Source of the DNA: Candidatus Heimdallarchaeota archaeon
GTDB lineage: Archaea; Asgardarchaeota; Heimdallarchaeia; JABLTI01
Direction: 5' to 3'
DNA length: 32,000 nucleotides
NCBI GenBank assembly: GCA_030614005.1
Contig: JAUWKS010000002.1
Span: 137,888 to 169,887 of the forward strand
Each line of letters opens with the position of its first letter. Positions within the stretch are counted from its first letter, which is position 1. The notes beneath the pieces were generated by a model, which saw nothing but the letters and a program-made list of their open reading frames with translations, had not been told where the DNA came from and searched no databases. Below, in pieces: positions 2,646 to 24,561 of the stretch. A program made the position numbers and the translations under genes.

Positions 2646-3027
2646 TCAAGCGGATTGCAGAAGGAGGAAATACAGTAAAAGTGGGAAACCAACACCAAAA
2701 GCAAGTAGGGATGCAAATGAAACAAAATATTTCACCCATTTCTTTGTTACTGTTCTTACATATCCGGCCGATCTTCTCGAGATAGAATATTTCCTAAATT
2801 GCCAATTTGTTAAAGGTGTTACCGGTGGATCATATTTCTTTCCTTGTGGTTTTTCTGTAATGCTTAGTAAATGATTCCAAGTTTTCACTTGTAAAATACA
2901 TCGATACTCTTCAAATGGGCTATAACCAAGTTCTTGGTCCTTCGTTTTGTTGTAGTATTTTTCCCCTTTCTTTTCTATTTCTGTGAATTCATGTCCGGGA
3001 GCTTCTATTGTTGACCGTTCCTTTTTT
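2646..3027 (-). pseudogene. 3' half of the host membrane-protein gene interrupted by the 3028-14168 element
   Basis: The frame of the 80-aa track ORF (2646-2888) stays open upstream to the TIR (KKERSTIEAPGHEFTEIEKKGEKYYNKTKDQELGYSPFEEYRCILQVKTW...). It has no ATG there and ends in a C-terminal TM helix. Confidence 0.75.
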
Positions 3028-3045
3028 TATGGACAAATAGGACAT
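3028..3045 (+). repeat. Left terminal inverted repeat TATGGACAAATAGGACAT
   Basis: Exact reverse complement of 14151-14168; contains GGACA twice, 9 bp apart. Confidence 0.9.
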
Positions 3046-3165
3046 TTATCCATCACCAGTCACCACAACAAGTCCAGAGGATTTGTTGCAGCTCATCTCT
3101 GAGCCCCCACTAGGAATAGTTGAGTGGAGGGTTCCCGAGTCCATGTAGGGCACGGGGCTAGTGTC
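3046..3165 (-). ncRNA. Candidate TnpB omegaRNA/reRNA scaffold overlapping the tnpB 3' end
   Basis: Three consecutive hairpins on the minus strand: CCUCCACU/AGUGGGGG (8 bp with a G-U pair), GCUCA-GAGA-UGAGC (GNRA loop), CAACAA-A-UCC-UCU-GGA-C-UUGUUG. The G-U pair and GNRA loop favour the minus strand. This is the known position of TnpB omegaRNAs. Ends are approximate. Confidence 0.65.
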
Positions 3166-4686: not shown

Positions 4687-4857
4687 TTTTTCTTCGCGTT
4701 TACTGTTGTTTAGCTAGATATAATTAAATTCTCTAAGGAGATTACCGAAAGTATTAGAGATTTGTTTAAAAGAATAGTTGAACGAATAGCTAAACGTACA
4801 GCTTTTCTAAGAGGTATTTAATAAAGGAAGTGGGAATAACCTTCTAGGAGAACAGCT

Positions 4858-6486
4858 ATGCAAGACTTTCTCAATTGGCGAACGGATCCATTACTAGTGG
4901 ATATTGAACCTGCCAGACCTAACCAATGGTTCACAGCAAATGAGTTAATAGAGGGAGATAGAAGAGATTCATTCATAACACCGGAAAATCAATTGCTTCT
5001 TTATCCAATCATGATCCGAAAAAACGATTTCATAACCGGGGAACGAATCTTGCAATCGTTTCCATATATTCTATTAGACACTAGAATAATTTCCAAATGT
5101 CGTAAACAATCTCTTGCATTAGCAGAAAAAACCCATTATTATTTTCAAGGCTCTAATTATAATCATTCTATTCGTGATTGGCAGAAAAAGTTCATCAGTT
5201 ATTTAGAAGAACAACAACGCCTGCCTTTTCCTCTATTTCGACTTTATGATGATTGGTTAGATTATATAAAAGAGAAAAAATTTGCTCGATTCCAATCTGC
5301 TCGAGGAGAGAATTTTCAATTACCACTTTATCTTTCCGAGGACTTGGCTTATCTTTCCGGTGTGGTTATGGGTGATGGTCATCTGGCGGAATATTTTGTT
5401 AATATCATTGATTCTTCAAAAGAGCACATTCTAAATTTAAAAGAAAAGCTTGAAGAGCAATTCAATTCCAAAACGGAATTTTTCAAACAACCAAACGCTA
5501 AAGCTTGGAATGTCAATATTCTAGGTAAATGGATCGTTCGCTTCTTTAACTTTATTTTATCACAACCAATTAAAGAGAGAAAATATCCTGCTCTTAGAGA
5601 ACCATTTATTTTTCGAGAGAATGAGTATTTTCGCAGTAGGTTTTGGTCAGGATTGATGGATGCAGATGGTACCTATAAAAGAGTTATTGGATTTAGTTCT
5701 GCATCCAAACAACTTCGATCTGACTTTTCTAATTACTTAGATGAAAACAATATAAAACATCGATTTTATGAGTATAGTGTTTTTGGTGGAACTACTTTTA
5801 GTATAACTATTGCAGGTCATTCAAGAAAGCCATTTGCTCAACAAATAGGTTCAAATCATCCAGATAAACAACAAGAACTGCAGTTACTATTACAGAAAAA
5901 AGTCTATCGATTTTCACCTCGAATTACTACTCTCAGAAAAAAAAACTCATGGAACGAGCAAGTTCAAGACTTTTCTAAAGATGCAATCCTTGATGGTTTT
6001 TTTAATCTTTCATTAATTACCACTCTACAAATTTTAGATTTAGGTAGTGATATAAAATCACTGCGAAAAAAGCACAAGGAAAAACAAAAAGAATTAGCTT
6101 CATATTTAGAGATTACCCCTAGTTTACTTTCAAAATATGAATTAAATAAAACAGCACTTCCAATTTATATTCTTAAAAAGATACTTTCAAAATACAATGT
6201 TTCATTTAATCACTTTTTTTCTCAATTAAGTAATTTAATTTTCCGTTCTACAAGTTCTAGTTGTCAGTTTCCATTAAAACCAGAAGAAAGGTTATTGACT
6301 TTAATTAGAGGATTACAAATTATGCCAGAAAATTATTTTCGAGTTATAGGATTGAGAGAAGTGTCAATTGAACATTATAAGAAAGAAATTAGTGATTATT
6401 TTAAAATTAATGAACCTATAACAGATGTTTTTCATAACGCTTGTTTAGTTGAATTGATTCGATCATTTTGCTTAATCCGAAATTAA
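4858..6486 (+). CDS. Stand-alone double-motif LAGLIDADG (DOD/intein-type) endonuclease with a C-terminal XRE-type HTH
   Basis: Motifs LAYLSGVVMGDGHL (~5344-5385) and FWSGLMDADGTY (~5641-5676). HTH IKSLRKKHKEKQKELASYLEITPSLLSKYELNK (~6055-6150). RBS AGGAGA upstream. No intein splicing termini recognised. Confidence 0.85.
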   Translation: MQDFLNWRTDPLLVDIEPARPNQWFTANELIEGDRRDSFITPENQLLLYPIMIRKNDFITGERILQSFPYILLDTRIISKCRKQSLALAEKTHYYFQGSNYNHSIRDWQKKFISYLEEQQRLPFPLFRLYDDWLDYIKEKKFARFQSARGENFQLPLYLSEDLAYLSGVVMGDGHLAEYFVNIIDSSKEHILNLKEKLEEQFNSKTEFFKQPNAKAWNVNILGKWIVRFFNFILSQPIKERKYPALREPFIFRENEYFRSRFWSGLMDADGTYKRVIGFSSASKQLRSDFSNYLDENNIKHRFYEYSVFGGTTFSITIAGHSRKPFAQQIGSNHPDKQQELQLLLQKKVYRFSPRITTLRKKNSWNEQVQDFSKDAILDGFFNLSLITTLQILDLGSDIKSLRKKHKEKQKELASYLEITPSLLSKYELNKTALPIYILKKILSKYNVSFNHFFSQLSNLIFRSTSSSCQFPLKPEERLLTLIRGLQIMPENYFRVIGLREVSIEHYKKEISDYFKINEPITDVFHNACLVELIRSFCLIRN

Positions 6487-6806: not shown

Positions 6807-9800
6807 ATGAGTAAAGCTGTTTCTTCCACAAAAAAACTTCCTCTTTGTCTTTCTATGGGTGTGACAGAGGTGCTAGAAGGAAGGGAGAGCATAACAGGTA
6901 AAGACCTTCTAGATTATTTTTCTTTACAGGATAAAACATCTTTTCTTACTAACACGAAAAATTTTGTTCTTGTTTGTGGAAATAAACAGAGACCAAATGA
7001 CTATGAGCCTAACAAATTCCTCGGCTCTTTTGGTGTTCGAAGAGCACTAGCAATGAAGAATTACACTCGATTGCCTGTAATTATTGTTACCAATAACCGT
7101 TTTGAAACTTCTATGCTTATTGAGCAGTTTAATAAACTAACTTCTTGTTTCAAACTATACACATCAAAGAAAAGTCAAAGAGAAAATATTAATGAAGAAA
7201 TTAAAGCGGACTACCCGAATGAAGCAGACTTTATACTGACAACATATAGCTCTTTCTGGGATCAAACAACAAACAAGGATGATCCATCTTCAGAACAAAT
7301 TATCTTAATCAATCCATTAAGACTAAAATATATCATCGAGGATGTAGGCAAATTAGATGTCATTTTTGGCTGTATACATAGGCATAAGCGAATAAGACCG
7401 AATTATTCCTTCATTCTTGATGAAGCACACTACCCAATTCTATCAAAGAAAGATTATCAATTCTTATTTAAAGCAGGCAATAGTCTTTTCTTTAGATGCA
7501 AAGAGAGAATGCTTTTAGAATATAATAATCCATTCAGAGAAGCTATTTCTCACCTAACTAGTGATCAATTCCAGCTATTTATTTTCACAGATCTTTTTAG
7601 GGGAAGAAAACTGATAAAAGAACTGGTTAAAGAGTTCAAATCAACTTTTACTTATAAAATGTACCTCTACAGTAATGGTATTTTTCCAACAATTGATGAA
7701 AAATTGCCTTCAAAAGAACTTCTTAAAGAAAAGAATAGGCTTGATAAGAAAGTTTTAAGTGGAATTGTAAAACAAATACATTTATTCACAAAAGGAAGCA
7801 ACACCAAAACGATAACAGGAAAAGTAACTTACAGCGATTTTGATTTTAACGTTGGCCTCAGTAAACAAGAGATATCTCGAACGTATTCCTGGGATAAACC
7901 AAAAGAAGCAGCAAGATTCCTTCCGGTAGTCACTAAGGAAGAAGGAAGATTCAAACTTAGCGCTCTAGGAGAAGAAATATTTGGTGTGTCATCATGGTTT
8001 AGTGGTGTTGAGGACAATTTTAGCGAACTTTTAGCTCACTTTTCTAGGATCCTTTACAAAAACAAGAAGGAAAACCACAAATTTTCCGTGAAAGAGATAA
8101 TCATTTTTTATCTTCAAATGATAGATTGCAATTATGAAACAGTGAAAAGATTTGAGGAGGCAATTCCTGAAAAGTTAGACACAGAAAAAAAGAATGACCA
8201 AATGATCGCAATCCTTGAAAAGAAATTCAAGCCACTAGTTAAAAATTTCAAAAGAGTTTCAGCAAAAAAAATCCTTGGTGCTTTTGAAAAATTAATGAAT
8301 ACTGAAGCATACATTTTCTATCAACAATTCAAGAATTATAAGAAAGAAGAGAAACGTTCCTGGGAAGAGAGAAGGAGAAAAGCGGTCCTAAGAAAAGCAA
8401 ATTATCAGCCCTTAGCTGTGAAATTCACAGGTGATTATTATCACATGTTTTGGCAAGACGCCAAGAAGTTATTGGAAGAATTAGTTGAAGAAGGGCGACT
8501 TGTCAGGATTATTTCTTACAATGGTAGAGGAAAACCGATACTAAAGTACCTTACTCAAGAATTACTGGATGCGAACCCTCATTTCCAAAAGAATTGCGGG
8601 AACTGTCAATGGTACAATCAACGCTTCAAAACATGCACCTTTTTACGTTTAAAACAAGCGAAAAACCCGAGTACAATGACAAAAGAAGAATTTGAATATG
8701 CTAATGATACACTAAGATTTGAAGCAACTGCTTGTGAGAAGTACATAGAAAAAGATGATTTTCAGTCGATGGAAGGCAATGTTAAGTTCACTGCTACCGT
8801 TGAGAAGTTAACTAAAGATATGAAGAATATATCAATGAGCTTTTTATCAGGAGATATTGCAGAGTACAAGTATCATTGTCTTTCTTGCCAGGAACAAATA
8901 GAAGAATTTGGTACAGGTGATAGAATCTTCTTTCCAAGGAGAAGAATTATTTGTCCTAACTGTTCGACAGTTTATCTTCAACTAAAAGATCGGAAAAAAG
9001 TAAAAGTGAAAATGGAGGAAAGAGATCATCAAAGAAGCTTATACTTCAAAGAAACTGGGACCATTACTGACGTTTTGAGGAAGAAAGATTCTGCTCGTGT
9101 TTTTGTCATACATGACATAGATAGTGCTAGATTAAGAATCAACGAAGAAAATGATGAGCCACCTTATTTTCTAGTGATAGGTAAAAATGAAATAGCTCTG
9201 GATTTGGTGCAGTTTGTCTATTTTTCAGGTATACGTCATCAAGAATTAGAAGAAACAATGTGGTTACTAGCGGACCTTGATTCTGAAAGATACAAATACA
9301 AAATTAAGCGAACAGAACAAAAGTCAAAGAAGAAAAAAGCAAAAAGTCGATATAAAAGACCCTTTTCAGCTGAAGACTATTCCAATATCATAAAAATAAT
9401 CAAAAAAAGCTCCGATAAAGAAATATTCAACCATCAATTTTTGGAAGCAAGGCTTATCTCAAATATTGCTGGAATGTTATCAATAAAATATGAAATAGAA
9501 ATGGAAAGCTTCTCTGACTGGCATTACAATCACCAATTGTTGGAAATGGTTGATTTGCATATGAAAGTAATTGGCGGAGAAGTAAAGTCAAGCTATTATG
9601 GAACTCAATTAGAAGCACTTAGCAACAAGCACTTTTTTGACTTTTTGAAGGGAGAAGCTGCGAGAGTAGGTCTCTGGTCAAAAGGGCGAGTGAATAGCAG
9701 GCTAGTGATAGATATGCTTAAATCCTTCAGCCAAAAGGTTAGTAGTGCTTTTTCACCTTTAGATGCTTTACTGAATCAAATGTTGCGCTCATTCAGAGTA

Positions 9801-10985
9801 GAATTAGATCCGTTGTTTCACAGGATGGGCATGGATCCTGCAATGTTAGGTCCAGGTTTGTTTCATAGACGAAAAACAAAATCTGATATTGACCAGCTAG
9901 GTTTTTACTTCGACTTAATAGAAGCTGTGCGAGTTCTAGTGCTTGTAACTATTGTTAAAGCTATTCGAGATGGCACCCTCGGTTTTGATGATTGTAAATA
10001 CGTACTAGGTGAGGATGGACAAGAGATCTATCAAGTGAAAGGTTCTTCCCTGGATAAATTCACCAATCTGGTTTCAGAAGCTCTTGAACAAACCGTTTCA
10101 CATCAAGGGCAAAGAATGACTTTTAAACAAGCTTTTGAATTCAATCTTTTGTGCTTAAGAGTTGCTTTTGAAAAATGTCTTTCAGAGATAGAAGAACATA
10201 AACAAATTACTTTGAAAAAAATCAAGAAGTGTTTTGATGATTCACTTTTTATTTCATTTACTTTCTGCCCTGAAGGACTAGAAGAGAAGTTAATAGATTT
10301 AAATCGATTTGCAAGTAAAGAAGGAGTAATTTTCTTTGGAAAAGAACAAGAAGTTTTGGAACGAAAAGAAACAAGAGAAAAATATAGAAAAGAAGTAAAG
10401 AGTCATTGGTACAACGAAAATGTGATTAAAAAGCTAAATGCTTTTCGGTTGACCAAACATCAAATTAAAGAGCAAGATAGAAGTTTGCTTGTTATTTTGT
10501 TGTTATTGTACAATACTTTTGAAAGAGATTTTACAATTGATGAATACTCAACTAATCATTTTAAGGAATTACTTGGAATAACTCAAAACCAAGTACAGAG
10601 ATTACTTGATCAAATGGTTTCCAGTGGATTGCTTCTTCGAGAGAAAGTAAATAGAAAGAATTTCTACGAGTTAAATCTTAAAAATCTAAATGTTAAGGAC
10701 TTTCGTTTTCTTCTTGGAGTAAATCTCTCTTTAGAGGAACATCTTCAAAGAGAGTTTATCATCAATATTCCTCCTCATTTAGAGCGAGTTGAAAAGATTA
10801 TTTCTCAAATCAAATTGCTTCCTACTAATCAACAAAAAGTCATAAGAAGTAATTTTTGGTTTGATTGGGAACCAACAGAAATTATTCGAAGAGTAATTGT
10901 TTGGGCAGAAGAGAAAGCTGTAACTAGTAAAGCATTTTTCAAAATGATAGGTGATATTCATGGTAAAAAGCAGTTACATTTTTAA
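6807..10985 (+). CDS. cas1: Giant multidomain Cas1-like integrase (casposase-like): degenerate SF2-helicase-like domain, Zn fingers, Cas1, wHTH; 1392 aa
   Basis: Cas1 beta-domain pattern from ~aa 763 (RVFVIHD...IALDLVQFVYFSG). Helical domain with LEA (E936), SPLDALLNQM, MGMDPAMLGPGLFH (H1020), LGFYFDLIEAVR (D1036/E1039). wHTH ~aa 1245-1291. N-terminal VIIVTNNR, FILTTYSSF, ILDEAH (D205). Cys motifs CGNC (597), CLSC (691), CPNC (716). Confidence 0.8.
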   Translation: MSKAVSSTKKLPLCLSMGVTEVLEGRESITGKDLLDYFSLQDKTSFLTNTKNFVLVCGNKQRPNDYEPNKFLGSFGVRRALAMKNYTRLPVIIVTNNRFETSMLIEQFNKLTSCFKLYTSKKSQRENINEEIKADYPNEADFILTTYSSFWDQTTNKDDPSSEQIILINPLRLKYIIEDVGKLDVIFGCIHRHKRIRPNYSFILDEAHYPILSKKDYQFLFKAGNSLFFRCKERMLLEYNNPFREAISHLTSDQFQLFIFTDLFRGRKLIKELVKEFKSTFTYKMYLYSNGIFPTIDEKLPSKELLKEKNRLDKKVLSGIVKQIHLFTKGSNTKTITGKVTYSDFDFNVGLSKQEISRTYSWDKPKEAARFLPVVTKEEGRFKLSALGEEIFGVSSWFSGVEDNFSELLAHFSRILYKNKKENHKFSVKEIIIFYLQMIDCNYETVKRFEEAIPEKLDTEKKNDQMIAILEKKFKPLVKNFKRVSAKKILGAFEKLMNTEAYIFYQQFKNYKKEEKRSWEERRRKAVLRKANYQPLAVKFTGDYYHMFWQDAKKLLEELVEEGRLVRIISYNGRGKPILKYLTQELLDANPHFQKNCGNCQWYNQRFKTCTFLRLKQAKNPSTMTKEEFEYANDTLRFEATACEKYIEKDDFQSMEGNVKFTATVEKLTKDMKNISMSFLSGDIAEYKYHCLSCQEQIEEFGTGDRIFFPRRRIICPNCSTVYLQLKDRKKVKVKMEERDHQRSLYFKETGTITDVLRKKDSARVFVIHDIDSARLRINEENDEPPYFLVIGKNEIALDLVQFVYFSGIRHQELEETMWLLADLDSERYKYKIKRTEQKSKKKKAKSRYKRPFSAEDYSNIIKIIKKSSDKEIFNHQFLEARLISNIAGMLSIKYEIEMESFSDWHYNHQLLEMVDLHMKVIGGEVKSSYYGTQLEALSNKHFFDFLKGEAARVGLWSKGRVNSRLVIDMLKSFSQKVSSAFSPLDALLNQMLRSFRVELDPLFHRMGMDPAMLGPGLFHRRKTKSDIDQLGFYFDLIEAVRVLVLVTIVKAIRDGTLGFDDCKYVLGEDGQEIYQVKGSSLDKFTNLVSEALEQTVSHQGQRMTFKQAFEFNLLCLRVAFEKCLSEIEEHKQITLKKIKKCFDDSLFISFTFCPEGLEEKLIDLNRFASKEGVIFFGKEQEVLERKETREKYRKEVKSHWYNENVIKKLNAFRLTKHQIKEQDRSLLVILLLLYNTFERDFTIDEYSTNHFKELLGITQNQVQRLLDQMVSSGLLLREKVNRKNFYELNLKNLNVKDFRFLLGVNLSLEEHLQREFIINIPPHLERVEKIISQIKLLPTNQQKVIRSNFWFDWEPTEIIRRVIVWAEEKAVTSKAFFKMIGDIHGKKQLHF

Positions 10986-13900
10986 CAAGAAAGAAATCTT
11001 CCCGATTAATCCTGGTAAACCCCGAAAATGGATCACTATTCATAACCTTCCTGCTACTGAACCAAGGAAAATAACTGGTCTCACATGGCAAGAAGTACTA
11101 CCTGGTTATGCTCAAGCTTTAGCAGAAGTGATCGAAGAAATAACTGGTAGTAAGAACCCCTATGAGCACCAAGAACAAGCAATAAAGCATTTATTGAATA
11201 ATTCTGCTAATAAGAAATGCCTGGACCTCATAATTAAAGGTGGAACTTATTCAGGAAAATCACTATCTTTCATCGTTCCTGGTATCATCAAGCAAATAAA
11301 TGAGGAAACGGATTTTACAGTCATTTTTTACCCTTCGAAACAATTACTCCTAGACCAATTTGAAAGAGTGAAAGAGTATTTGGTGAAATTCGAGGAAAAA
11401 ACAGGCATCAGATTAATTTGTGAAAAGTACAGTGGAGATACTGGAAATACTAATTACTCTAAAGGGGTAGCTCGTGTAAATGATCAAGAGCTGAATAATT
11501 TAGAACAGAACCCGCCGAATGTCTTGCTTGCCACTTTTGACAAATTTTGGCATCATTATGAGAGTGGGAACAGCAGTCCGTTAATAAAGAAAATAGCATC
11601 TGCAAATTATCTTGTTTTTGATGAGATACATGCATTTGACGGTTACGCTGCAGGTAACATTAAGGGCTTTATTGCTATTCACAAGAAAGCTAATCCTCAG
11701 GGGCAATTTATACTTTCCTCTGCTACTATAGCTAATGTTGAAGGATTCAGAGACGATTTCTTGCCTAATGCTAAAATAATTACTTGCCCACCAGTGAGAG
11801 GAGAACAAGTGTATGTTGGCACAACAATTGAACACACAGTTTCACTGCTTGCAGATTTCTGGAAAGAAATGGAAAAAATGCCAGGAAAAACCGGTCTTGT
11901 TTTCCTTGATTCGAAAGAAAACATCGAATTATTAACAGACCTACTCTGTAGGAAACTCAAGCAGGATGACCCTTTCTTTGATCCTGACACTGTGCAGATG
12001 ATCCACGCAGATTTGGAATATTATCATCGTAAAAGAGTGCAAGATGAGCTTCGAAAAGGAAATAGAAATATTATTAGAATTCTCATCTCTTCCTCAGTCT
12101 TGGAGCTTGGTGTAAATATCCCTAACATTCAAACAGTATTTAATATTGGCATTCCGATAACACAGAAAGATGGTATTATTCAAAGGATGGCTCGCAATCG
12201 CTCTGTTCCCGGTGAAAGAAGAACGAATGTTTTTCTGTTCGACCTTTCTAAGAAACGTGACAGTTTTTACTGGAACAATAAGGAAATCCTCAAGGACATT
12301 CTTGAAACGAATGCTTGTAACCCTATTCTTTATCCCAAACTTAACCCGAAGATATTGGCGGGGCAAATTATCTTGCACCTTAGATACGGTATTAATGACT
12401 TTGGAGAGATAATGCAATTCTTCCTTGATCAAGGACCACAAGTTTATCGCTTAGCAAGACAACAATACACTAAACTTGTTAGTTTAAATGTCCTGAAAAA
12501 AAGCAGCGATGGTAAAGTTCTCTTCACAAGCCAAGGAGAAAAAAAGCTAAAAGTGCAAGCAAAAAAGAAAAATCATCTTGTTCCGTTCTCCATACGAGCT
12601 ATTAAAAATAATTGGTCTATTAAGAAAAAATTTGGAGAAAGTTCTTACTGGCATGAAAATAGAAAATCTAGTCTTGGTAAGATCTCTACCAAGGATGTTT
12701 TAAAGAAAGGATTGCCTGACAATATTATTACTCGTAACAAAAAACAGTATCTTGTTACGGATAAAGATCAGCAATTAAGAACTATTTACGTTAAAGAATT
12801 ACTTTCTAAAGAAAAAAGTGCTGGAAATTTTTCCGGAATAACTAATCGTTTACTTGACCCTCAGATAACTCCTGGTGTTTTCTCTAAGAAAGTTAAAGGA
12901 ACAAAAATAGTTGACATTAGTTTTGGTCAAGTTTCAATTAAGCAACAACCTTTAGCTATTGTTAACTCTAATCCCGAAAAAATTAGTTCTAATAATACTC
13001 ATGTAAAGGATAACAAGAACTTTTTTTGGCAAGAATTAACCCCAAAACGCTCGGAAGAATTGGCTAATACTGAAAAGTCAGATGGATTAGCCATTACATT
13101 AACTTCTGATATTCCAAAACCAAAAGAACTTACAACTAAGAAATTACTAGAATATTTTGGGCGCGTCCTACAAGTTGAGATTGAAACCGTTCTTTCAATT
13201 CCAGGTAGTGAATTCGCACTTGCGATTAATACTAATCAATTAGCAATTTATGATAAAGGAGACCCAAATGGAAACTCAGAGTATTTGTTTAGTCATTTAC
13301 AAAAAGTCGCTGCTCGAACGCTCAAAAGATTGACAGATTGTTCTTGTGAAAATGGTTGCAAAAATTGTTATGGTGAAATTCTTGGCTTATTTCCTAAAGG
13401 AGTAAAAGAATCACTAAAAATACTTTTCAAGGATTTAACGCTGATTTCTGAAGTGGAGTTTGATGATGAATTGTTGCATGAAATCAATCCTGAGCAAATG
13501 AATTTCAAAGAAAACAGAATTATTGCTTTTTCAGATATTCATCTTACAAACAAGCTTTGTTTCCAGGAAGAATTTTTCGAAGCGCTCAAAGAGCAGAGTA
13601 AACAAGCTGATATTATCATCATCAATGGTGATTTATTAGATACTATTTCAGAAGATAGTTATCAGGCTTTTAGTGAATTCAAAAGCATGGCTATACGTGA
13701 AGGTTTTTGGTCGAAACTAGTTCTGATACGCAGTTCTTCTATTCATGACGGCAATCTTGAGCAATTCACAGGTTTCCTCCATCAAGATTATGTTGAAGTT
13801 GAGATCGGTTCTGAACAAGTATTATTCGTCCACGGAAATAGGATCGGCATAAATCCTAGTTTAGTAGATAAAACAAGTATAGGAAAAGCTGTCTTTGAAG

Positions 13901-14127
13901 CAAAAAAGGCTTTAATAAAGCCGGGCAAGATTTGGCTTCCTGTTATTCTCCCTGAAACTCATCTTGTTATTGGCCATGTTCATCTCCGATTTTATAATGA
14001 ACGCTTTCGAGTTTATGGTTCTGGTCACTGGACAAAAAAAGGTGACCCTTACAATCAACGATGCATGATAATTCTTGACCCTAATTCTTTAGATGTGCCA
14101 AAAATCGTTTCATTTGATAACTATTAG
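10951..14127 (+). CDS. DEAD/DEAH-box (YprA/Hrq1/SftH-like) helicase + DUF1998 Zn domain + calcineurin-like metallophosphoesterase
   Basis: Q motif PYEHQEQA, Walker A GGTYSGKS, YPSKQLLLDQ, DEIH, SAT, SSVLELGVNI. DUF1998-type IYD..PNG...CSCENGCKNC. C-terminal SDIH, NGDLLD, FVHG, GHVH. Likely start is ATG 10960 after a GGTGA RBS, overlapping the cas1 stop. Confidence 0.88.
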   Translation: MIFMVKSSYIFNKKEIFPINPGKPRKWITIHNLPATEPRKITGLTWQEVLPGYAQALAEVIEEITGSKNPYEHQEQAIKHLLNNSANKKCLDLIIKGGTYSGKSLSFIVPGIIKQINEETDFTVIFYPSKQLLLDQFERVKEYLVKFEEKTGIRLICEKYSGDTGNTNYSKGVARVNDQELNNLEQNPPNVLLATFDKFWHHYESGNSSPLIKKIASANYLVFDEIHAFDGYAAGNIKGFIAIHKKANPQGQFILSSATIANVEGFRDDFLPNAKIITCPPVRGEQVYVGTTIEHTVSLLADFWKEMEKMPGKTGLVFLDSKENIELLTDLLCRKLKQDDPFFDPDTVQMIHADLEYYHRKRVQDELRKGNRNIIRILISSSVLELGVNIPNIQTVFNIGIPITQKDGIIQRMARNRSVPGERRTNVFLFDLSKKRDSFYWNNKEILKDILETNACNPILYPKLNPKILAGQIILHLRYGINDFGEIMQFFLDQGPQVYRLARQQYTKLVSLNVLKKSSDGKVLFTSQGEKKLKVQAKKKNHLVPFSIRAIKNNWSIKKKFGESSYWHENRKSSLGKISTKDVLKKGLPDNIITRNKKQYLVTDKDQQLRTIYVKELLSKEKSAGNFSGITNRLLDPQITPGVFSKKVKGTKIVDISFGQVSIKQQPLAIVNSNPEKISSNNTHVKDNKNFFWQELTPKRSEELANTEKSDGLAITLTSDIPKPKELTTKKLLEYFGRVLQVEIETVLSIPGSEFALAINTNQLAIYDKGDPNGNSEYLFSHLQKVAARTLKRLTDCSCENGCKNCYGEILGLFPKGVKESLKILFKDLTLISEVEFDDELLHEINPEQMNFKENRIIAFSDIHLTNKLCFQEEFFEALKEQSKQADIIIINGDLLDTISEDSYQAFSEFKSMAIREGFWSKLVLIRSSSIHDGNLEQFTGFLHQDYVEVEIGSEQVLFVHGNRIGINPSLVDKTSIGKAVFEAKKALIKPGKIWLPVILPETHLVIGHVHLRFYNERFRVYGSGHWTKKGDPYNQRCMIILDPNSLDVPKIVSFDNY

Positions 14128-17532: not shown

Positions 17533-17577
17533 TGGACTATCACCAAATAATTTTTTATTATTATTTTGCTTCTCTGC

Positions 17578-18717
17578 CTATGCTTCAAGCCTTCTCGTCT
17601 TCGAGGTGGTTGTCCTCTCAGAGAGAGCAGTATCATGGTCAGTGAAGGAAAGCATCTCAGCATCCATAGCAGTATCAAGTTCTTCTCTTCTACTTGCCGA
17701 TAATGAGATAATTTCATTATGTATTACTAATTTTCCATTATAAAAGTCATTTATTGCTAAATTTACCATTAACAAAAGATGATTTTTCAAGTAATTTTTT
17801 CCATACTGGAAGGATTCTACTATCCTTTCAAGATTATCTGAAAGAAGGAGATAATTATAAAGTTTTAGATGATTAACTTGATTCACTTCAATATCTTTTT
17901 TTAATTGCTGAAAGTCAATCTTCCCTTTTGACTTGTCATAGCGAAAGGTTGTCTGGTATGGCTTCTTTCGAGTGATGTAAGAGGCAAGTCTATCGTAATA
18001 CTGCACTATTGGTAGGAGCATATTGGTACTTCCTTCTCCATTGTGGTGGTTTAGACAAGCTTCTCTAACTTCTTCATCTACGATGTCTATCTGTTGGAAA
18101 ATTTTACTGTTGTGTTTCTCTGTGTGAACAAAATCGTGTAGCATGAGAGCAATAAGCAATCTTTGTAATTCCTCAGGGTAATCTGCTCGTAAACCAGCTC
18201 GAATTTTGAATTTCTTATACTGCCATGTTTGATTACAAGAAGTACATCGTTTGCGTTTAGAATTTTTATCATAGATTGTTGTTGAATTCTTGCATTGAGG
18301 ACATTTCTCAGATAAAGGAACGGTTACAGTAGGATCTGTTTTTGTAAAATGCTTGATTTCACATGATTCCCAAAGGACTCTACCATACCCTTCAGCAGTC
18401 TTTGGACCCAAGAATGATTTCTGGAGAAATGGTTCTATTTTCCTCTTTAGCTGTTCTTCTGAAAACCCCACACAACTGATTGTAACAAATCCTCGGAACC
18501 CATGTAAGACCGTAGGATACTGATTCTTGCCATAGACCAATTTACCTATAGTTGAAAAGAGAGGTTTAGTTTCCTTCTTTGGATCTCCGACCACTTTTAC
18601 CAAACACCCGTGCTTCCAATATGTTGATTGAGAAACGACAATTGGATTCACCAACCGACCCACGAGTGTAGCAATTTTCTTTTGTTTTATTTGTATGTTT
18701 TCCATGCGTCTAAACAT
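17578..18717 (-). CDS. Cas5-like RAMP fused to a Zn ribbon and a Cas10-type (circularly permuted) HD nuclease
   Basis: RAMP Gly loop FLGPKTAEGYGRV; CPQC...CTSC; HD motifs LMLHDF, CLNHH, YYDRLAS, and a downstream LKNHLLLMVNLA. Overlaps the cas7 stop. The Cas5 versus other RAMP subfamily assignment is inferred from size and position. Confidence 0.7.
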   Translation of the reverse strand: MFRRMENIQIKQKKIATLVGRLVNPIVVSQSTYWKHGCLVKVVGDPKKETKPLFSTIGKLVYGKNQYPTVLHGFRGFVTISCVGFSEEQLKRKIEPFLQKSFLGPKTAEGYGRVLWESCEIKHFTKTDPTVTVPLSEKCPQCKNSTTIYDKNSKRKRCTSCNQTWQYKKFKIRAGLRADYPEELQRLLIALMLHDFVHTEKHNSKIFQQIDIVDEEVREACLNHHNGEGSTNMLLPIVQYYDRLASYITRKKPYQTTFRYDKSKGKIDFQQLKKDIEVNQVNHLKLYNYLLLSDNLERIVESFQYGKNYLKNHLLLMVNLAINDFYNGKLVIHNEIISLSASRREELDTAMDAEMLSFTDHDTALSERTTTSKTRRLEA

Positions 18718-19631
18718 TCCTGTAATAGTTGATTTTGATATGTAGTTCTTTCTTCCTCAATGATAGCTAATTTCCCATCACCATTTTCTTGCCCTAATTT
18801 TCTCTCGAAAACTATCTTCTCATACGAAACATTTTTTATCTCAAGACGACCATACCCACTATTTTCTCCTCGACCAAGATACTTTAAAGAAAAAATTCCA
18901 TCAATAAGTAGCCCAAGTAACCATTGTGGGAGAGATTCTGAAAATTCAACATAGAATTGAAACTCTCCACTGAAATATTGTTCACTAAAATCTTGCAAGA
19001 CTTTTCCATCTCTTCGTGAAGCATGACGATTCTCAGTAGAAACATGAACAAATGAAAGGCCTTTTTGAGCAGTGATTTTATTAGAAGGTTTATCGGTTTG
19101 TACGAGAGCATCAGTCCATACTCTTATAGGGGACTTCTCACCAAGCATACCAAATAACTGTCTTACAGGGCATGGGTTCTCTCCACATTTACCCATAAGA
19201 TGCTCGTTGATTAGTAAGGTTGGTTCATTGTTTCCTTGAAATCTCTCTTTCATAGTAGGAGAGCAATATTCAATTCCTCTGTTATGTAGAATCTCCATGA
19301 TACTATGTCTAATTGCACCACGAACGCCTTTAACCATCCGAGAGCTTCCAAGTTCTTCTTTAAGAGTAAAGACTTGAATTTTAGCGTCGTTTTCCTTTCC
19401 TTCTGCTTTAACTTTTAGCTCGTTAAAATCATCAAGAATCAAATCTTTGTTGGTTAAGAGGAATTCCTCTAATTCTGAAACCTTAACATTTGTTCTACCT
19501 TGAAATTGATAGGGAACGTCTCCCCCTTTCATAAGAAAGGAACTTTTACCGCTACTTCCATTAAGCGTTTTCGTAAACCAAGCATATACCTTAACTGTTA
19601 AACGATTGAAAGTGTGTGTCATAATCATCAT
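18687..19631 (-). CDS. cas7: Cas7-group RAMP (Csm3-like)
   Basis: KGVRGAIRH (cf. SLKGALR), C...CGENPCPVRQLFG, thumb STENRHASRRDG, Gly loop LGRGENSGYGRL. KGGDVPY lies at about the position of the Csm3 GGxD catalytic loop. Confidence 0.82.
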   Translation of the reverse strand: MMIMTHTFNRLTVKVYAWFTKTLNGSSGKSSFLMKGGDVPYQFQGRTNVKVSELEEFLLTNKDLILDDFNELKVKAEGKENDAKIQVFTLKEELGSSRMVKGVRGAIRHSIMEILHNRGIEYCSPTMKERFQGNNEPTLLINEHLMGKCGENPCPVRQLFGMLGEKSPIRVWTDALVQTDKPSNKITAQKGLSFVHVSTENRHASRRDGKVLQDFSEQYFSGEFQFYVEFSESLPQWLLGLLIDGIFSLKYLGRGENSGYGRLEIKNVSYEKIVFERKLGQENGDGKLAIIEEERTTYQNQLLQECLDAWKTYK

Positions 19632-19727
19632 ATAACATTAATGATTCATTACTTTTAAAGGTTTCTAATTAGTATTTTTAAAGAATGTTTATATTGCCGT
19701 ATTCAGTAATTCTAATTTGTGGTAAAA
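19632..19727. promoter_or_regulatory. Divergent promoter region between cas7 and the AbrB-like gene
   Basis: 96-bp AT-rich gap between head-to-head ATGs, with TATA-like boxes (TTTAAA twice, TTTATA). Confidence 0.45.
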
Positions 19728-19898
19728 ATGAGCGAAGAAATACCAAAAATAGTATGGAAAAGGAAAGTAATCTACAATTCTGGTTCATTTCGAATATCAT
19801 TGCCGATAGAAATAGCTGATGCTTTTGATATTCAAAAGGGACAACTACTACAACTGTCTGTTGAAGGAAAACGGATTATCGTCGAACTAATTGATTGA
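19728..19898 (+). CDS. AbrB/MazE/SpoVT-family DNA-binding protein (56 aa; missing from the ORF track)
   Basis: Translated by hand: MSEEIPKIVWKRKVIYNSGSFRISLPIEIADAFDIQKGQLLQLSVEGKRIIVELID*. Matches the swapped-hairpin pattern (RKV...S..I.LP.E.A..L.I..G..L......IIV). Confidence 0.85.
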   Translation: MSEEIPKIVWKRKVIYNSGSFRISLPIEIADAFDIQKGQLLQLSVEGKRIIVELID

Positions 19899-19934
19899 AA
19901 TTTTTAGCCATATTAATTTAATTATTCAATAATC

Positions 19935-20004
19935 TCCCATGTGGAGCGTCGTTTATCACCGTAGGGGATAAACAGCGACTGCATGAGTCTGCTCCGAGCA
20001 AGGA
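19935..20004. other. GC-rich structured intergenic segment (candidate ncRNA, oriT or terminator)
   Basis: Stem GTCG-TTTATC...GATAAA-CAG-CGAC (19948-19979), flanking CATG/CATG, and GGAGC (19943-47) complementary to GCTCC (19991-95). Confidence 0.5.
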
Positions 20005-20054
20005 CATTGAAAGAAAATAACAACTATCTAATAATAGTTAAATCAAAAAGGGAT

Positions 20055-21677
20055 CTAATTCTTTCCAAGTAATTCCTTCGCTAAACACGGTCGTAACTCT
20101 GGCTTAGATTCCCAAATTTCTTTTATCTCAGACGGGGACTTCTTAACGGTTTCTTCTGCTAAAGTTGTCCGCTTATCACACTCAGCCAGAGTGATCTCTT
20201 TTGCACACAGAGAGCATTTCTCAGCAAACGTTATCAATAACTCTCGTTCTTCTTGAGTTATATTCTTAACATCAAATGTTAATACAACAATTGCTTTTTT
20301 TAATCTACTTGTATCTTGCACTGTTTCTGTTGGTTCTTGCTTTCCTACTGAACTAATCTGTTTGTATTCCATTTCTTTAAATTCATCTAATATCACCAGT
20401 GCTAAAAATTGTTGTAATTCAGTTTCTTTCTTCCAGACTTTGGGGATGTTTTCAATCCATTGAGTGTTTTCCTCTTCTGTTATTCCTAACAGGCTTTTAG
20501 CTATACTTCTCTTATCAACAATCTCTTCTGGTGAAAGTTTAGCATAATCTATTGTTGCAGCTACTATCTCAAAAATCTGTTTTGCTTCATCTATCGTCTC
20601 ACTATCGGACAGAGGATAATGAGTCATTGTCTCTTGAGGTACTTGTTTATCCGGTTCTTCTTCCTTTTCATCTTGTAGTAATTTTAATCCCATTCGCTTT
20701 TTCTCTTCGAGTGTCTTTTTATCGACTTGGAAAATCTCTCCGTAATACCTGAAGAATACCTCCAGACCATCAATTTGATCAAACTTGCTTAAAGCTGTTA
20801 GTTCTCGTATCAAATGACAGATTGAACATAACAAGAACTTATCCATTAGCTCAGGTGTTAATTCCCATTTCGTATATTTTCTAAGATATAGCTTTACTAT
20901 ATGTCGAAGTTCTTTGATATTGTATATTCGATCGTGTAAACACTCCGCTGTAAAATCATGTTTATCAGTAGTAGAACAAACTTTCTGTATAATTTTAGTC
21001 AATTTAGGATCTCCTTCAAGATTTTTCATAAAATCAAAAAACAAAACTTCCGGGGGTTCGGTTTCCATCACTATATCTTCCTCCTCCTCCTGTGAGAATG
21101 CTTCACCTATCTCAAAAGAATCATCATCAAAAGCAGTTTCAACTGTTTCGGGAGAACTCTCCTCGATTCTAATTAAATCCGTTTTTTTATTATTCCATCT
21201 CTTATTGATCCGTTCTTCATAATCTTGGATAGTTGCATTATTTGCATCAATATTCATCAAATAATAATAAACTAATAACAAGTTAGTGAGCAATGATTTT
21301 ATTTTTGATATACCTACTTTTTTCTTTTCTCTCTCTTTGAGTATCTTCTTGCATCCAAGAACACAAAAGGTCAATATCCTAACTGAATTTTTCTTATGTG
21401 TTTTGTAGAATGTTAATCCCTCTTCTGTTCTACGCAGGTGTTTTATTATCTTACTCTCTATTACACTAATCGTTTCATCAATCAAGGTTTTGTTTAGTTC
21501 TCTATCACCGGTCTTTCCCTTGATGAATTGGCTGAGAATGATATTTTCCTCGGATACGTCCTCGATAATTGCTGACCAATCTTGCATCATACATATTGGA
21601 AAGTGGTCAATTGCTCTTGGACATGGAGCTTTGAATAACTCTTGGTAGGCTTTCTCAGTCTTGGAAATATTCTTCAT
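20055..21677 (-). CDS. Hypothetical helical protein (540 aa)
   Basis: The track ORF starts at 21749, but ATG 21677 (MKNISK) has a GGAGG RBS and overlaps the ATPase stop by 23 nt. Acidic linker DDDSFEIGEAFSQEEEED. No family recognised. Confidence 0.75.
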   Translation of the reverse strand: MKNISKTEKAYQELFKAPCPRAIDHFPICMMQDWSAIIEDVSEENIILSQFIKGKTGDRELNKTLIDETISVIESKIIKHLRRTEEGLTFYKTHKKNSVRILTFCVLGCKKILKEREKKKVGISKIKSLLTNLLLVYYYLMNIDANNATIQDYEERINKRWNNKKTDLIRIEESSPETVETAFDDDSFEIGEAFSQEEEEDIVMETEPPEVLFFDFMKNLEGDPKLTKIIQKVCSTTDKHDFTAECLHDRIYNIKELRHIVKLYLRKYTKWELTPELMDKFLLCSICHLIRELTALSKFDQIDGLEVFFRYYGEIFQVDKKTLEEKKRMGLKLLQDEKEEEPDKQVPQETMTHYPLSDSETIDEAKQIFEIVAATIDYAKLSPEEIVDKRSIAKSLLGITEEENTQWIENIPKVWKKETELQQFLALVILDEFKEMEYKQISSVGKQEPTETVQDTSRLKKAIVVLTFDVKNITQEERELLITFAEKCSLCAKEITLAECDKRTTLAEETVKKSPSEIKEIWESKPELRPCLAKELLGKN

Positions 21678-24561
21678 AAGTTTCAGTCCTCCAATTGTAG
21701 TTTTCTCCCTTAGTATCAAAACCATACGAGGAAGTTTGTAATTTCTCAATTTCAGAGTCGTAATCGATCAAAAAACTGAAAGCTTCGGTAAACGAGAGTA
21801 ATTCCTCTTTCATCAACCCTTGAAGAATCCATTGAAAAGCACATTTGGTCAAATTTCTACGATCATCATTGGTTACTGCTCTCTTCCCCATTTTCAATTC
21901 ATCATCAATGCTTGTATTAACCATAATAGAAAGACTATCAAGGAAATCAGAGAAATCATCATTCAATTTCACAGAGATGTTTTCCCAACCATCGTAATCT
22001 TGTATGACAAATCTACGTGAGGATTCTTTCAAAATCTGAGCTAATTTTGTTTTCTTGAAAAGAAGACAATCACCTTTCTCTGAGAAAAGAAAACTACATT
22101 TTGAGAGGCAATTCTGCCCTAAATTTTCCACCTCTTCTTTCAACCGTGCATTATCTTGCATTTCGATTAATTCAGTATCAGCATCTTCGAGCAGATATGA
22201 TTGGTTACTCAATTCAATATATTTTGGGTGAGATTTTAGCAATGAACTATACTCCTCATCGGAAAGCTTCTTTCTTGTCGGACGGATTAATTGCACTAAT
22301 CTAATGGGAAACTCCTCATTGGGTAATTTGACGTCACATTGGAATTTTTTGAGAGAGTGAATGTCACGGATATCTTCATAGTTCATGTTTAAACTCAAGA
22401 CACGGGAAATACAGGAAAAATTAGCAAAGAATTTACTATCAAAAATAAACTCGGTTATTTTTTCAGCGGAAACACCGATGAGAATAAAACCCGCACCATG
22501 CTTTCTAATCGCTGTAAGGCATTCCTCAGCAAATAACATATCAGCATCATCTTTTCTTTTATTGCCTTTTCCAGGAACAACGATTGATGCCTCTTCGATG
22601 AAAACCAATACTTCTAATTCAGCAGGAGCTGTTTTTAGCAAATAATTTTGTAACTGATAGAGAATGAGACTCCCTATTGCTCGTTTTGCAACATTGCTTC
22701 GCAAACTTTTGAGGTTAACAATGATATTTGTTTGTTTTAACAGATTCATATTCAAATTACTTTTATTAGCGAAAACGATCTCTCTCAGTTCTCGCTCGAA
22801 GAGATTGAGTTTATTGAGTAATGATCTCCTACTCCACTCGGGATTGATAAACTCGTTACGATTATGGTCTATGAATTCTCTGATCTTTCTTTTGAAAGAC
22901 GGATAATTTCTATCTTCTGAATTCGCTTTCACTGTTGTTAATATCCCTCCCCAAAGCATTTGCTTTTGAGCTGGCGTGAATTCGGTGAAGGTTGAGTCAA
23001 TGCTGAGCGTTTCGTGAAAAAATTTGTTGAGCGAAGTAATATGTTCATTTTCATTGACAAAGTCGTCTTGAAAAGGATTGATATGCAAAGGAGCATTGGG
23101 ATTGTTCGCTTCAAGTATTAAGAAATCAGGGTCAGTAGCGAATCTTTTTGCATGTTCACCGGAAAAATCAAGTATTATTTTCCTTTTCGTTGGATAGTTG
23201 GAATGTATTTGTTCAATAAGTGCACTTACCCATTCACTCTTTCCATAGCCAGAAGTGCCGAAGATCCCACAATGATGGATGAAATCCTTGTAACTTATCC
23301 GTAACTGTTCTCCAGTTATCGTTTCCCCTAAAACTATCGGATGAGTTTCTATTGGTCTTTGTTCCGATGGCGGGGTGGTTATATCCTTGACAAATGGTAT
23401 GCCCGAAATCGGTCTTCGATACACATCGATGATTGCTCTGCCAGAATAACCACTGATCAGTTTGTTAGTTCTATTGACAAGACGATGATTTTTGATATTC
23501 CGGAGAATATATTTTGGTTTTAAGCTCATTACTTTTATTTTGCGAGTGAAACCATCATAAGCAGAATCTAAGCTACCTAACAATTGATTTTGAGTATGTA
23601 ATACTTTATCAGAATCATATCCCTTGAGTACTACAGATACTTCGCCGTGAACATAGCCACTCGTTTCCATGTCTTCGGTTTCTGAAATACGGTGTAATTG
23701 TTTCTTGCTAAGATTTCGCTCCCGACCATCTTTATCTGTGGTTCTGGGAAGCGTTTTCTTACGAAGCCAAAATTTAAGTTTAGAACCTTGGCGTAGATTA
23801 CTAAAAGTATGGATCTCAACATCTTGACTTAACTTTACTATTCTTTCCACAAGTCCATCTACAGGGGTAACAAATTTCTTTATGTGCTGATTTGCAGGTT
23901 CACCAACAATACTTAATCCTTTCACTTGGAATTTAGTAGGATTACCATACTGTAAATCTAAATCCTTCTGATAGTCATCAAAATCTCCTTTTTCAAAAGG
24001 AACGATTTCCATTCCGAAATTGCTGAATGTTCCTGCTAAACGATAAAAAATATCTGACGAGGACGGATAAAAAAATATTCTTGCTTGTGACGCATAGATA
24101 CAAATTTTCTCTATTCTGCCCTTAGAAGCTTTTTGATGAATTGTTACTTGTTTGAAATTCTTCGCAAGAGCTTTTGAAAGAGAAGCATTGGTAAAGTCAG
24201 TAGAATCTTCATATTCTCCTATTTGCTCGGTTGATATTCGAGTGACTTTGGCTAAAATAACTCTCTCTCTTTGAAATAGAATAATTATTCCCTTAATTAA
24301 CAGCCACAATAATATACCTACTACTACTGTCACTATTATTATCAAACATATATTGATTATAAGATTTAGCAGTTTAACAGTATATAATTTACTAAAATTC
24401 TGAAAATAACTCTTGCCAAAATTATAGTTAAAGAAGAACTTATCCGCAATTCTATAACCAATAAAAAATCCTAAAACCGCTAAACTGATAAACGAAAAAC
24501 CAATTAATAACTCAGTTTTTGGACTTTTTCTAAAACTATAATATTTTCCATTCGAATCCAT
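21655..24561 (-). CDS. Membrane-anchored HerA/FtsK/VirB4-VirD4-like P-loop ATPase (DUF87-type)
   Basis: Two N-terminal TM helices, HCGIFGTSGYGKS (Walker A), IILDFSGEH, LHINPF, VFIEEAS (Walker B), IRKHGAGFILI. Confidence 0.85.
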   Translation of the reverse strand: MDSNGKYYSFRKSPKTELLIGFSFISLAVLGFFIGYRIADKFFFNYNFGKSYFQNFSKLYTVKLLNLIINICLIIIVTVVVGILLWLLIKGIIILFQRERVILAKVTRISTEQIGEYEDSTDFTNASLSKALAKNFKQVTIHQKASKGRIEKICIYASQARIFFYPSSSDIFYRLAGTFSNFGMEIVPFEKGDFDDYQKDLDLQYGNPTKFQVKGLSIVGEPANQHIKKFVTPVDGLVERIVKLSQDVEIHTFSNLRQGSKLKFWLRKKTLPRTTDKDGRERNLSKKQLHRISETEDMETSGYVHGEVSVVLKGYDSDKVLHTQNQLLGSLDSAYDGFTRKIKVMSLKPKYILRNIKNHRLVNRTNKLISGYSGRAIIDVYRRPISGIPFVKDITTPPSEQRPIETHPIVLGETITGEQLRISYKDFIHHCGIFGTSGYGKSEWVSALIEQIHSNYPTKRKIILDFSGEHAKRFATDPDFLILEANNPNAPLHINPFQDDFVNENEHITSLNKFFHETLSIDSTFTEFTPAQKQMLWGGILTTVKANSEDRNYPSFKRKIREFIDHNRNEFINPEWSRRSLLNKLNLFERELREIVFANKSNLNMNLLKQTNIIVNLKSLRSNVAKRAIGSLILYQLQNYLLKTAPAELEVLVFIEEASIVVPGKGNKRKDDADMLFAEECLTAIRKHGAGFILIGVSAEKITEFIFDSKFFANFSCISRVLSLNMNYEDIRDIHSLKKFQCDVKLPNEEFPIRLVQLIRPTRKKLSDEEYSSLLKSHPKYIELSNQSYLLEDADTELIEMQDNARLKEEVENLGQNCLSKCSFLFSEKGDCLLFKKTKLAQILKESSRRFVIQDYDGWENISVKLNDDFSDFLDSLSIMVNTSIDDELKMGKRAVTNDDRRNLTKCAFQWILQGLMKEELLSFTEAFSFLIDYDSEIEKLQTSSYGFDTKGENYNWRTETYEEYFQD

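Follow-up and report, generated by a model that had tools for sequence, protein, structure and literature searches.

Array-less RAMP modules and an Asgard cassette

Array-less, type III-derived modules with homologues of Cas5 and Cas7 have been described in archaea under two names, HRAMP and ARAMP (as summarised in PMC8730458 and PMC12669027). For HRAMP (Makarova et al. 2019, FEMS Microbiol Lett 366:fnz079, as summarised in PMC8730458), RNA-dependent defence was the proposed function, and ARAMP (Makarova et al. 2020, CRISPR J 3:156, as summarised in PMC8730458 and PMC12669027) is, according to these summaries, typically linked to HNH or PD-(D/E)xK nucleases (PMC12669027) and in most cases includes a distinct Cas1 (PMC8730458). 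Here we describe a cassette that carries a Cas7-like gene and a gene for a Cas5-like protein fused to an HD domain (Cas5-HD) in a Candidatus Heimdallarchaeota archaeon (GenBank assembly GCA_030614005.1). It lies in a stretch of 32,000 nucleotides (nt) of contig JAUWKS010000002.1 (positions 137,888 to 169,887 of the forward strand), hereafter the window, whose own numbering is used throughout. The cassette extends over approximately 17545-20010 (about 2.5 kb) and comprises two proteins, one regulator and one structured RNA; the base composition of the window is AT-rich, with about 33% G+C.

By its Asgard host, its Cas7 and Cas5 proteins and its lack of an array, the module fits the ARAMP class, beside which it is set by description, and which names a class for it while its function is untested. 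As in ARAMP, Cas7 and Cas5 are highly diverged and closest to type III, and a nuclease is present; the cassette is a variant of this kind in that it has no Cas1, HNH or PD-(D/E)xK protein, its nuclease being an HD domain fused to Cas5. The passages on ARAMP in PMC8730458 and PMC12669027 make no mention of an RNA component, an AbrB regulator or multi-copy cassettes, and a full-text literature search on related terms returned nothing further on such RNA or AbrB parts. HRAMP, compared likewise by description only, shares the array-less pair of extremely diverged Cas5 and Cas7 and the accompanying nucleases, but it belongs to another archaeal phylum, has an extra uncharacterised conserved protein, and its nucleases are stand-alone. 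A previous, sequence-only reading of the window had linked the gene pair to the array-less RAMP modules of Haloarchaea and Asgard archaea, and this link was correct, the Asgard modules being those named ARAMP (PMC8730458, PMC12669027). Our preferred interpretation, to which we assign a probability of roughly 0.55, is that this ARAMP-kind cassette encodes a Cas7/Cas5-HD particle that assembles on the cassette's own structured RNA and has the HD domain as its effector; about half of this confidence rests on the RNA-partner step, which we infer.

The same reading had described the pair as standing without cas6, cas10 palm domains, cas1/2 or an array, and our searches agree with it. Within the window, neither a tandem array nor any Rfam family, CRISPR repeats included, was detected, no cas1, cas6 or cas10 was present, and no HNH or PD-(D/E)xK gene lay beside the RAMP pair. 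In the source assembly (3.62 Mb and 90% complete, all genome-wide negatives being limited to this assembled part), no match was obtained with the Cas1 (PF01867), Cas6, Cmr2 and Csm1 models, TIGR02577 and TIGR02578 included, so that of Cas10 only the HD part is represented, in the fusion protein, and the RAMP-family matches were confined to the cassette genes. A k-mer scan that detects arrays in three related genomes found no array with at least three repeats. Nor did the 90%-complete assembly contain a full type III locus, a finding that would have counted against the sequence-only reading. What remains of CRISPR is a single vestigial unit on contig C42 (about 3406-3520), consisting of one intact 37-nt repeat, a spacer-length gap and one degenerate repeat, and the 37-nt repeat matches those of arrays in related genomes. 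The neighbours of 672-698 amino acids (aa) that accompany the cassette paralogues D, E and F had no Cas1 match in Pfam.

These data bear on the possibility that the complex borrows CRISPR RNAs (crRNAs) from an array and a Cas6 encoded elsewhere in the genome. It draws on the repeat unit of contig C42, on the genome being only 90% complete, and on some relatives having canonical Cas1 and type III RAMPs, since within the same family canonical Cas1 was found in G081, G084, G085 and G090 and canonical type III RAMP clusters in G081 and G083. However, the 3.62 Mb hold no array of at least three repeats, Cas6, Cas1, Cas10 or other RAMP, modules without canonical Cas1 or type III RAMPs are carried not only by this genome but also by the relatives G080, G082 and G089, and the structured RNA of the cassette is unlike the CRISPR repeats of related genomes. 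We therefore consider borrowed crRNAs very improbable.

The Cas7-like protein and the Cas5-HD fusion

Both RAMP genes are encoded on the minus strand, the Cas7-like open reading frame (ORF) at 18687-19631 (314 aa, with a likely start at 19622) and the Cas5-HD ORF at 17578-18717 (379 aa). Homologues of the latter start at a position corresponding to Met5 (18705), and the two ORFs overlap by 31 nt, or by 19 nt if Met5 is the real start. Seven cas7-cas5HD copies were found in the genome, four of a long type and three diverged, one of the diverged copies having a stop codon. Among the Cas5-HD paralogues, the ratio of nonsynonymous to synonymous substitution rates (dN/dS) was 0.06-0.18, with synonymous sites near saturation. 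Both genes are under purifying selection, and the two overlapping RAMP genes of the sequence-only reading are real ORFs. In total, 87 Cas5-HD homologues were collected, the named ones being from Heimdallarchaeota or Asgard, and named homologues overall are from Heimdallarchaeota, Thorarchaeota or the 'Asgard group'; the Cas5-HD gene occurs in 29 of the 399 genomes of the window's phylum, and the cas7-cas5HD gene order is kept across six Asgard families. The eight DNA data sets that contain the locus are marine-sediment and cold-seep metagenomes, and no relatives were confirmed on viral contigs.

The occurrence of truncated and stop-containing copies in this and related genomes could be taken to mean that a type III system has been lost and that these genes are its decaying, now functionless remains. 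This is hardly credible in view of the intact reading frames at the locus, the low dN/dS at near-saturated synonymous divergence, the retention of the gene pair in six Asgard families, and the invariance of the catalytic-type residues described below.

The 314-aa protein is a Csm3-like Cas7. It matched Pfam RAMPs at 26.8 bits (cut-off 22.1) and PADLOC Csm3 at 1.6e-8, and a profile built from 37 Cas7 homologues matched Methanocaldococcus jannaschii Csm3 (4qts) with an E of 4.4e-4, the Cys-rich segment being covered. Its AlphaFold model has a predicted local distance difference test (pLDDT) score of 87.6 and shows a Csm3-type core with an inserted helical stretch of ~55 aa (residues ~48-100). 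All 165 PDB matches that Foldseek returned for it at an E of 1e-3 or less were Cas7 proteins (types VII, III, IV and I; best 9.5e-8). Tetanus-toxin matches of the profile were rejected as a coiled-coil artefact of the helical insertion. The residues invariant in the 37 homologues include K21, N24, K101, R104, H109, E200 and R202 as well as the cluster C123/H144/C149/C154, by which the Cys cluster pointed out in the sequence-only reading proved to be real. Its companion claim, that Cas7 keeps a 'GGD' loop near the Csm3 catalytic position, was not supported. The D38 of this motif is acidic in 32 of the 37 sequences (D in 5 and E in 27), and the short paralogues do not have it. None of the tools placed it against the catalytic Asp of Csm3, and no Csm3 alignment covers its region. 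Because D38 is neither conserved nor aligned to the catalytic Asp, an RNase site in Cas7 is not established.

For the 379-aa protein, no Pfam, NCBIfam or PADLOC family was found besides weak zinc-ribbon matches at residues 138-164, and its structural model (pLDDT 86.2) is confident save for residues 342-379. Three parts can be distinguished, all on the minus strand: a RAMP domain (residues ~10-127, 18337-18690), a zinc-ribbon insertion with two CxxC pairs (residues 138-164, 18226-18306) and an HD domain (residues ~170-341, 17695-18210). The alignment shows the zinc ribbon to be an insertion of the window's clade only, most homologues being gapped there. In the RAMP domain, the RAMP-typical glycine-rich loop is invariant among 51 aligned homologues (G104, G110, G112 and W116), and every Foldseek row for the model was Cas5, Cas6 or Cas7, with a weak E of about 1e-3. 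Structural alignment of residues 13-127 with VIA-align gave as best match 9g9a_G, a 302-residue chain of the type III-A Csm complex of E. italicus (Z 8.5, root-mean-square deviation 2.7, 112 aligned), followed by RAMP-domain matches to a type IV chain (7xfz_B, Z 7.6), Cmr (6s6b_I, Z 7.5) and Cas6 (3qjj_A, Z 7.3). Together with the uniform Foldseek rows, the 9g9a_G match supports the RAMP fold that had been predicted for the N-terminal domain.

In the HD domain, all 51 aligned sequences share H194, D195, H202, K205, H224, H313 and N319, nearly all have H225 and D242 as well, and a domain-only alignment shows the same conservation. When residues 181-354 were compared by VIA-align, the top two rows were the N-terminal regions of Cas10/Csm1, which carry an HD domain (6ifk_A residues 2-310: Z 8.6, 19% identity, 148 aligned; 6mua_A: Z 7.8, 21% identity). 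Model residue 181 meets chain residue 2 in this comparison, and if the alignment is ungapped there, H194-D195 would come to lie near the Cas10 HD motif. Language-model neighbours of the domain were 'HD domain' clusters with a score of 0.88, which is a lead only. By sequence, the protein had no Pfam HD match, and a sequence-only search of the PDB with the whole protein or its HD domain gave nothing meaningful. A profile of the domain run against 1.84 billion representative proteins found 117 matches, nearly all with the HD domain C-terminal behind a short N-terminal part; Cas10 was absent from these 117 and from the PDB profile search, and three longer matches had no informative domains. The term Cas10-type HD is therefore a fold-level statement, because the Z scores are middling and sequence profiles miss Cas10. 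The HD domain that the sequence-only reading placed on Cas5 is supported by the invariant H194-D195 pair and by the predicted fold, which matches the N-terminal HD of Cas10. Since this predicted fold is Cas10-like, the protein looks like a fusion of Cas5 with a Cas10 HD domain and not like a Cas3-like addition.

We also modelled Cas7 together with Cas5-HD residues 1-341 and obtained an interaction prediction score from aligned errors (ipSAE) of 0.71, compared with 0.00 for the best control; the ipSAE mark used was calibrated, being reached by 58 of 80 solved complexes and by 2 of 110 mismatched pairs. Three runs agreed in at least 75% of contacts, and the partner pLDDT was 77. The predicted interface lies on the RAMP domain, where Cas5-HD residues 21-25, 53-57 and 91-121 contact Cas7. 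As Csm3-Csm4 complexes have already been solved, the model shows likeness and is not proof of binding, and memory of those structures may be the source of its passing score.

Among characterised systems, type III-A Csm is the source of the best sequence and fold matches for all three domains (Csm3, Csm4 and the N-terminal HD of Csm1). Csm4 contacts both Csm3 and Cas10 in type III-A, which fits a Cas5 and Cas10-HD fusion as well as the predicted interface. The cassette differs from type III-A in lacking a Cas10 palm/cyclase, Cas11, Csm5, Cas6, an array, adaptation genes and a demonstrable Csm3 catalytic Asp. For the way in which the nuclease is arranged, the closest characterised counterpart is type IV-C, whose large subunit has a Cas10-related HD domain (PMC8730458, PMC13676074). 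Like the cassette, type IV-C is a pared-down descendant of type III that has Cas7 and Cas5 subunits and has retained a Cas10-type HD while losing the cyclase function, but it has a separate large subunit, Cas11 and arrays. In the cassette, a Cas5 domain of about 120 aa carries the HD domain directly, and an array is absent.

A structured RNA at the 3′ end of the Cas5-HD gene

An RNA element of about 155 nt, hereafter the tail RNA, was identified on the minus strand at 17560-17715, where it takes in the ~45 final codons of Cas5-HD, continues for ~18 nt after the stop codon and is followed by an A/T hairpin and a T run reaching to about 17545. Using nhmmer, a family of such sequences was gathered, and RNAalifold folded 13 copies into 29 pairs, 9 of them compensatory compared with 4.0 ± 1.3 in shuffles, with 94% of cells paired as against 29-42% when the partners were slid. 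In the alignment of 34 copies made with a covariance model of the element (R1), 19 of the 29 pairs were compensatory and 92.2% of cells were paired (83.0% in shuffles), counts that are inflated by the fitting of this alignment to the model and by the relatedness of the copies. The window copy scored 162 bits with R1 and forms all 29 pairs. Frequent G-U pairs are compatible with the sense strand only. Moreover, synonymous divergence was 0.10-0.38 over the codons of the tail RNA and 0.52-0.77 in the remaining gene. The protein residues encoded there, 342-379, are those modelled with low confidence and are best read as the translation of the RNA element; in paralogue E, the tail-RNA nucleotides lie outside the ORF. 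Rfam has no family for the tail RNA or for the GC-rich element beside the regulator gene (see below), a lone snoR28 match (E 0.76) being by chance.

The tail RNA is not confined to intact cassettes. With R1, it was found in all but one of 11 further genomes in the family to which the window belongs (10 of 11), where its copies often outnumber the protein gene (in G081, 12 copies versus 6 protein genes), and about one third of the copies examined are gene-less or stand behind 5′-truncated Cas5-HD remnants. One such gene-less orphan lies in the window itself at 2473-2629 on the minus strand (139.5 bits with R1), 15 kb from the cassette and between a small membrane-protein ORF and a 159-aa ORF; the sequence upstream contains no trace of Cas5-HD or Cas7. 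The orphan is 60% identical to the cassette copy and retains 26 of the 29 pairs, three of them with both sides changed. The same part of the window contains an IS200/IS605-type element at about 3014-4967, which encodes a 546-aa TnpB with Cas12f1-like TNB and OrfB_IS605 domains. Because both of its ends are repeated on more than 20 contigs, many of them at contig ends, this TnpB element is a main cause of assembly breaks. A link between the orphan and TnpB was rejected, as the orphan lies 385 nt outside the insertion sequence (boundary ~3014) and no other orphan stands beside TnpB.

Beyond the close relatives, R1 matches the gene end in families f3 and f6. The short-form Cas5-HD proteins of f6 end right after the HD domain and have a different structured RNA immediately downstream, in which 10 of 23 pairs are compensatory and which has a short motif in common with the f1 tail, and the f28 loci have a downstream GC-rich block of their own (~130 nt, 80-90% identical between genomes). 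From the R1 matches in f3 and f6 and the separate downstream elements of f6 and f28, an RNA beside both genes emerges as a family-wide trait, and this is the main argument for RNA as a working part of the system.

On the preferred interpretation, the Cas5-like domain and Cas7 would assemble like Csm4 and Csm3 on the tail RNA, and additionally on the gene-less copies in trans, the HD domain would be the effector that cuts nucleic acid, probably single-stranded DNA by analogy with the Cas10 HD, and AbrB, the small regulator of the cassette, would repress a shared divergent promoter. The likely role would be defence, or conflict between mobile elements. No recognisable guide follows the tail RNA, which passes into the hairpin, the T run and the ribosome-binding site of the next gene, and because no variable single-stranded guide segment was found, it may be a scaffold, handle or regulator and not a programmable guide.

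The genomic placement of the copies keeps two other explanations alive. In nearly every copy, a short covarying hairpin and a T run are followed, after 10-15 nt, by the ribosome-binding site and start of the next gene, and these downstream genes are diverse, including those for RFC, ABCE1, ribosomal protein S19e and tRNAs. In related genomes, the tail RNA, with or without Cas5-HD remnants, stands just upstream of the RFC small subunit, ABCE1 and S19e genes, whereas in this genome, of these three, it precedes only the S19e gene (contig C94). The ribosome-binding site belongs to the downstream gene, because it is present at RFC and ABCE1 where this genome lacks the upstream RNA. One explanation that this layout sustains is a cis-acting messenger element, and the other is a selfish cassette inserted before essential genes, which is taken up with the cassette copies below.

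As a cis-acting part of the mRNA, the tail element could terminate or stabilise the transcript, be a site of processing or autoregulation, or act as leader of the next gene, while the complex would need no RNA of its own or would bind heterogeneous cellular RNAs. The constant position of its hairpin and T run before the ribosome-binding sites of genes such as those for RFC, ABCE1 and S19e agrees with this, as does the lack of a guide-like variable segment, and heterogeneous small RNAs are indeed bound by type IV-B complexes (PMC8730458). Yet termination does not call for a multi-helix fold of ~155 nt in which 19 pairs covary, the same genes in distant clades have another structured RNA in this position, and RAMP proteins are RNA binders by family. 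We therefore regard a purely cis-acting element as rather unlikely, while the hairpin and T run before the next gene's ribosome-binding site make it possible that the tail RNA is partly a terminator or leader.

Several observations weigh against an RNA-loaded HD nuclease. The tail RNA closes with a hairpin and T run directly ahead of the following gene's ribosome-binding site, and its 34 copies have no hypervariable unpaired stretch resembling a guide, while the pair counts from these copies are inflated as stated above. A look-up of data sets containing the locus found none of RNA. On the protein side, Cas7 is without a demonstrable Csm3 catalytic Asp, and the likeness to the Cas10 HD is one of fold only, with a Z that is middling for a helical domain and with profiles that find no Cas10.

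Regulator, cassette copies and their neighbours

At the other end of the cassette, a 56-aa gene of the AbrB/MazE fold was found on the plus strand at 19728-19898 (Pfam PF04014 MazE_antitoxin, 27.2 bits, cut-off 24.7), and a small divergent AbrB-like ORF occupies the equivalent position in all seven cassettes. The 56-aa gene is followed, 20-30 nt past its 3′ end, by a GC-rich structured element of about 85 nt (19926-20010, plus strand), present in this place in copies A, B and C, where it marks the left edge of the similarity among them. The sequence-only reading had mentioned neither the AbrB gene nor this element, and the tail RNA and the seven-fold copy number had likewise escaped it. The element is 81-88% identical across 8 loci in 5 genomes; in 6 of the 8 it immediately follows a detected AbrB-like ORF, and 4 of the 8 loci are without RAMP genes; RNAalifold gave 26 pairs, 3 of them compensatory. 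The element is part of the AbrB unit, and together with the AbrB gene it may form a unit of its own. A crRNA-tracrRNA-like pairing of the tail RNA with this element was tried and rejected, as it was no better than in shuffles.

The match of the small divergent gene to the MazE antitoxin family raises the question of a toxin-antitoxin or abortive-infection system, in which the HD complex would be a toxin held in check by the labile tail RNA, by the MazE/AbrB protein, or by both. A nuclease with an adjacent structured RNA resembles ToxIN-type systems, and extra RNA copies could buffer toxicity. Nevertheless, the AbrB gene is transcribed away from the RAMP genes and separately from them, as a regulator typically is, and the RNA is no tandem repeat, unlike the known type III antitoxins, so that we hold such a system to be very doubtful.

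The number and the borders of the copies would fit a selfish mobile element, its structured ends serving as borders and its tail RNA acting in an omega-like manner to give the HD nuclease a flank-derived target. For TnpB and IscB of the IS200/IS605 group, the omega RNA is a structured non-coding RNA that extends across the 3′ end of the effector gene and the downstream flank. The tail RNA is like it in layout only, overlapping the 3′ end of its effector gene; the omega effectors are RuvC nucleases, in contrast to the RAMP and HD proteins here, and no transposon ends or guide segment were identified in the cassette. OMEGA systems are among those named in PMC8730458. In favour of mobility, there are seven copies in the genome along with 5′-truncated remnants and solo RNA copies, the two structured elements are the exact limits of the similarity among copies A, B and C, and copies stand just upstream of essential genes, with their presence varying among related genomes. 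On the other hand, a transposase and an integrase are absent from the cassette, neither a target-site duplication nor an empty site came to light, relatives were not confirmed on viral contigs, the AbrB-side element is restricted to one clade and is found with AbrB alone as well, and the orphan RNA of the window lies outside the neighbouring TnpB element. On balance, a selfish element of this type is quite unlikely.

Directly upstream of the cassette (20055-24561, minus strand), a 968-aa protein with N-terminal membrane helices and an HerA/FtsK-type ATPase overlaps one of 564 aa that belongs to no known family. Near cassette C there is a 257-aa fragment of the latter, which suggests an old segmental duplication, and when an empty site was sought via this 564-aa neighbour, the only outcome was that synteny is not kept. 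Further away, a 542-aa protein with HTH_3 and LAGLIDADG_3 domains is encoded at 4858-6486 (plus strand); its paralogues (32-36% identity) adjoin cassettes D, E and F, and one stands beside an AbrB-plus-element locus on contig C7, so proteins of this type may have a loose functional or mobile link to the cassettes. At 6807-14127 (plus strand), a 1392-aa protein of no known family overlaps a 1058-aa DEAD/DEAH helicase with an MrfA zinc-binding domain and a calcineurin-like phosphoesterase (best PADLOC match SngC, 1.8e-16), and the two together look like an uncharacterised defence-type pair.

From 2019-2020 onwards, array-less RAMP systems have been listed as HRAMP and ARAMP without an idea of which RNA they use, if any. 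The cassette is the smallest such module defined, and it provides an RNA candidate with exact coordinates and covariation support, by which the guide question for array-less Cas7/Cas5 proteins becomes testable. If the RNA directs the HD nuclease, the cassette would be a very compact class 1-derived RNA-protein nuclease. A more far-reaching version, which we put forward as speculative and unlikely as it stands, is that of a self-contained, CRISPR-independent RNA-protein nuclease whose RNA is embedded in the 3′ end of its effector gene in the manner of a TnpB omega RNA, whose gene-less RNA copies re-programme or regulate it in trans, and whose cassettes behave selfishly upstream of essential genes. 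If this were true, array-less RAMP proteins would represent a third, independent route to RNA-directed nucleases.

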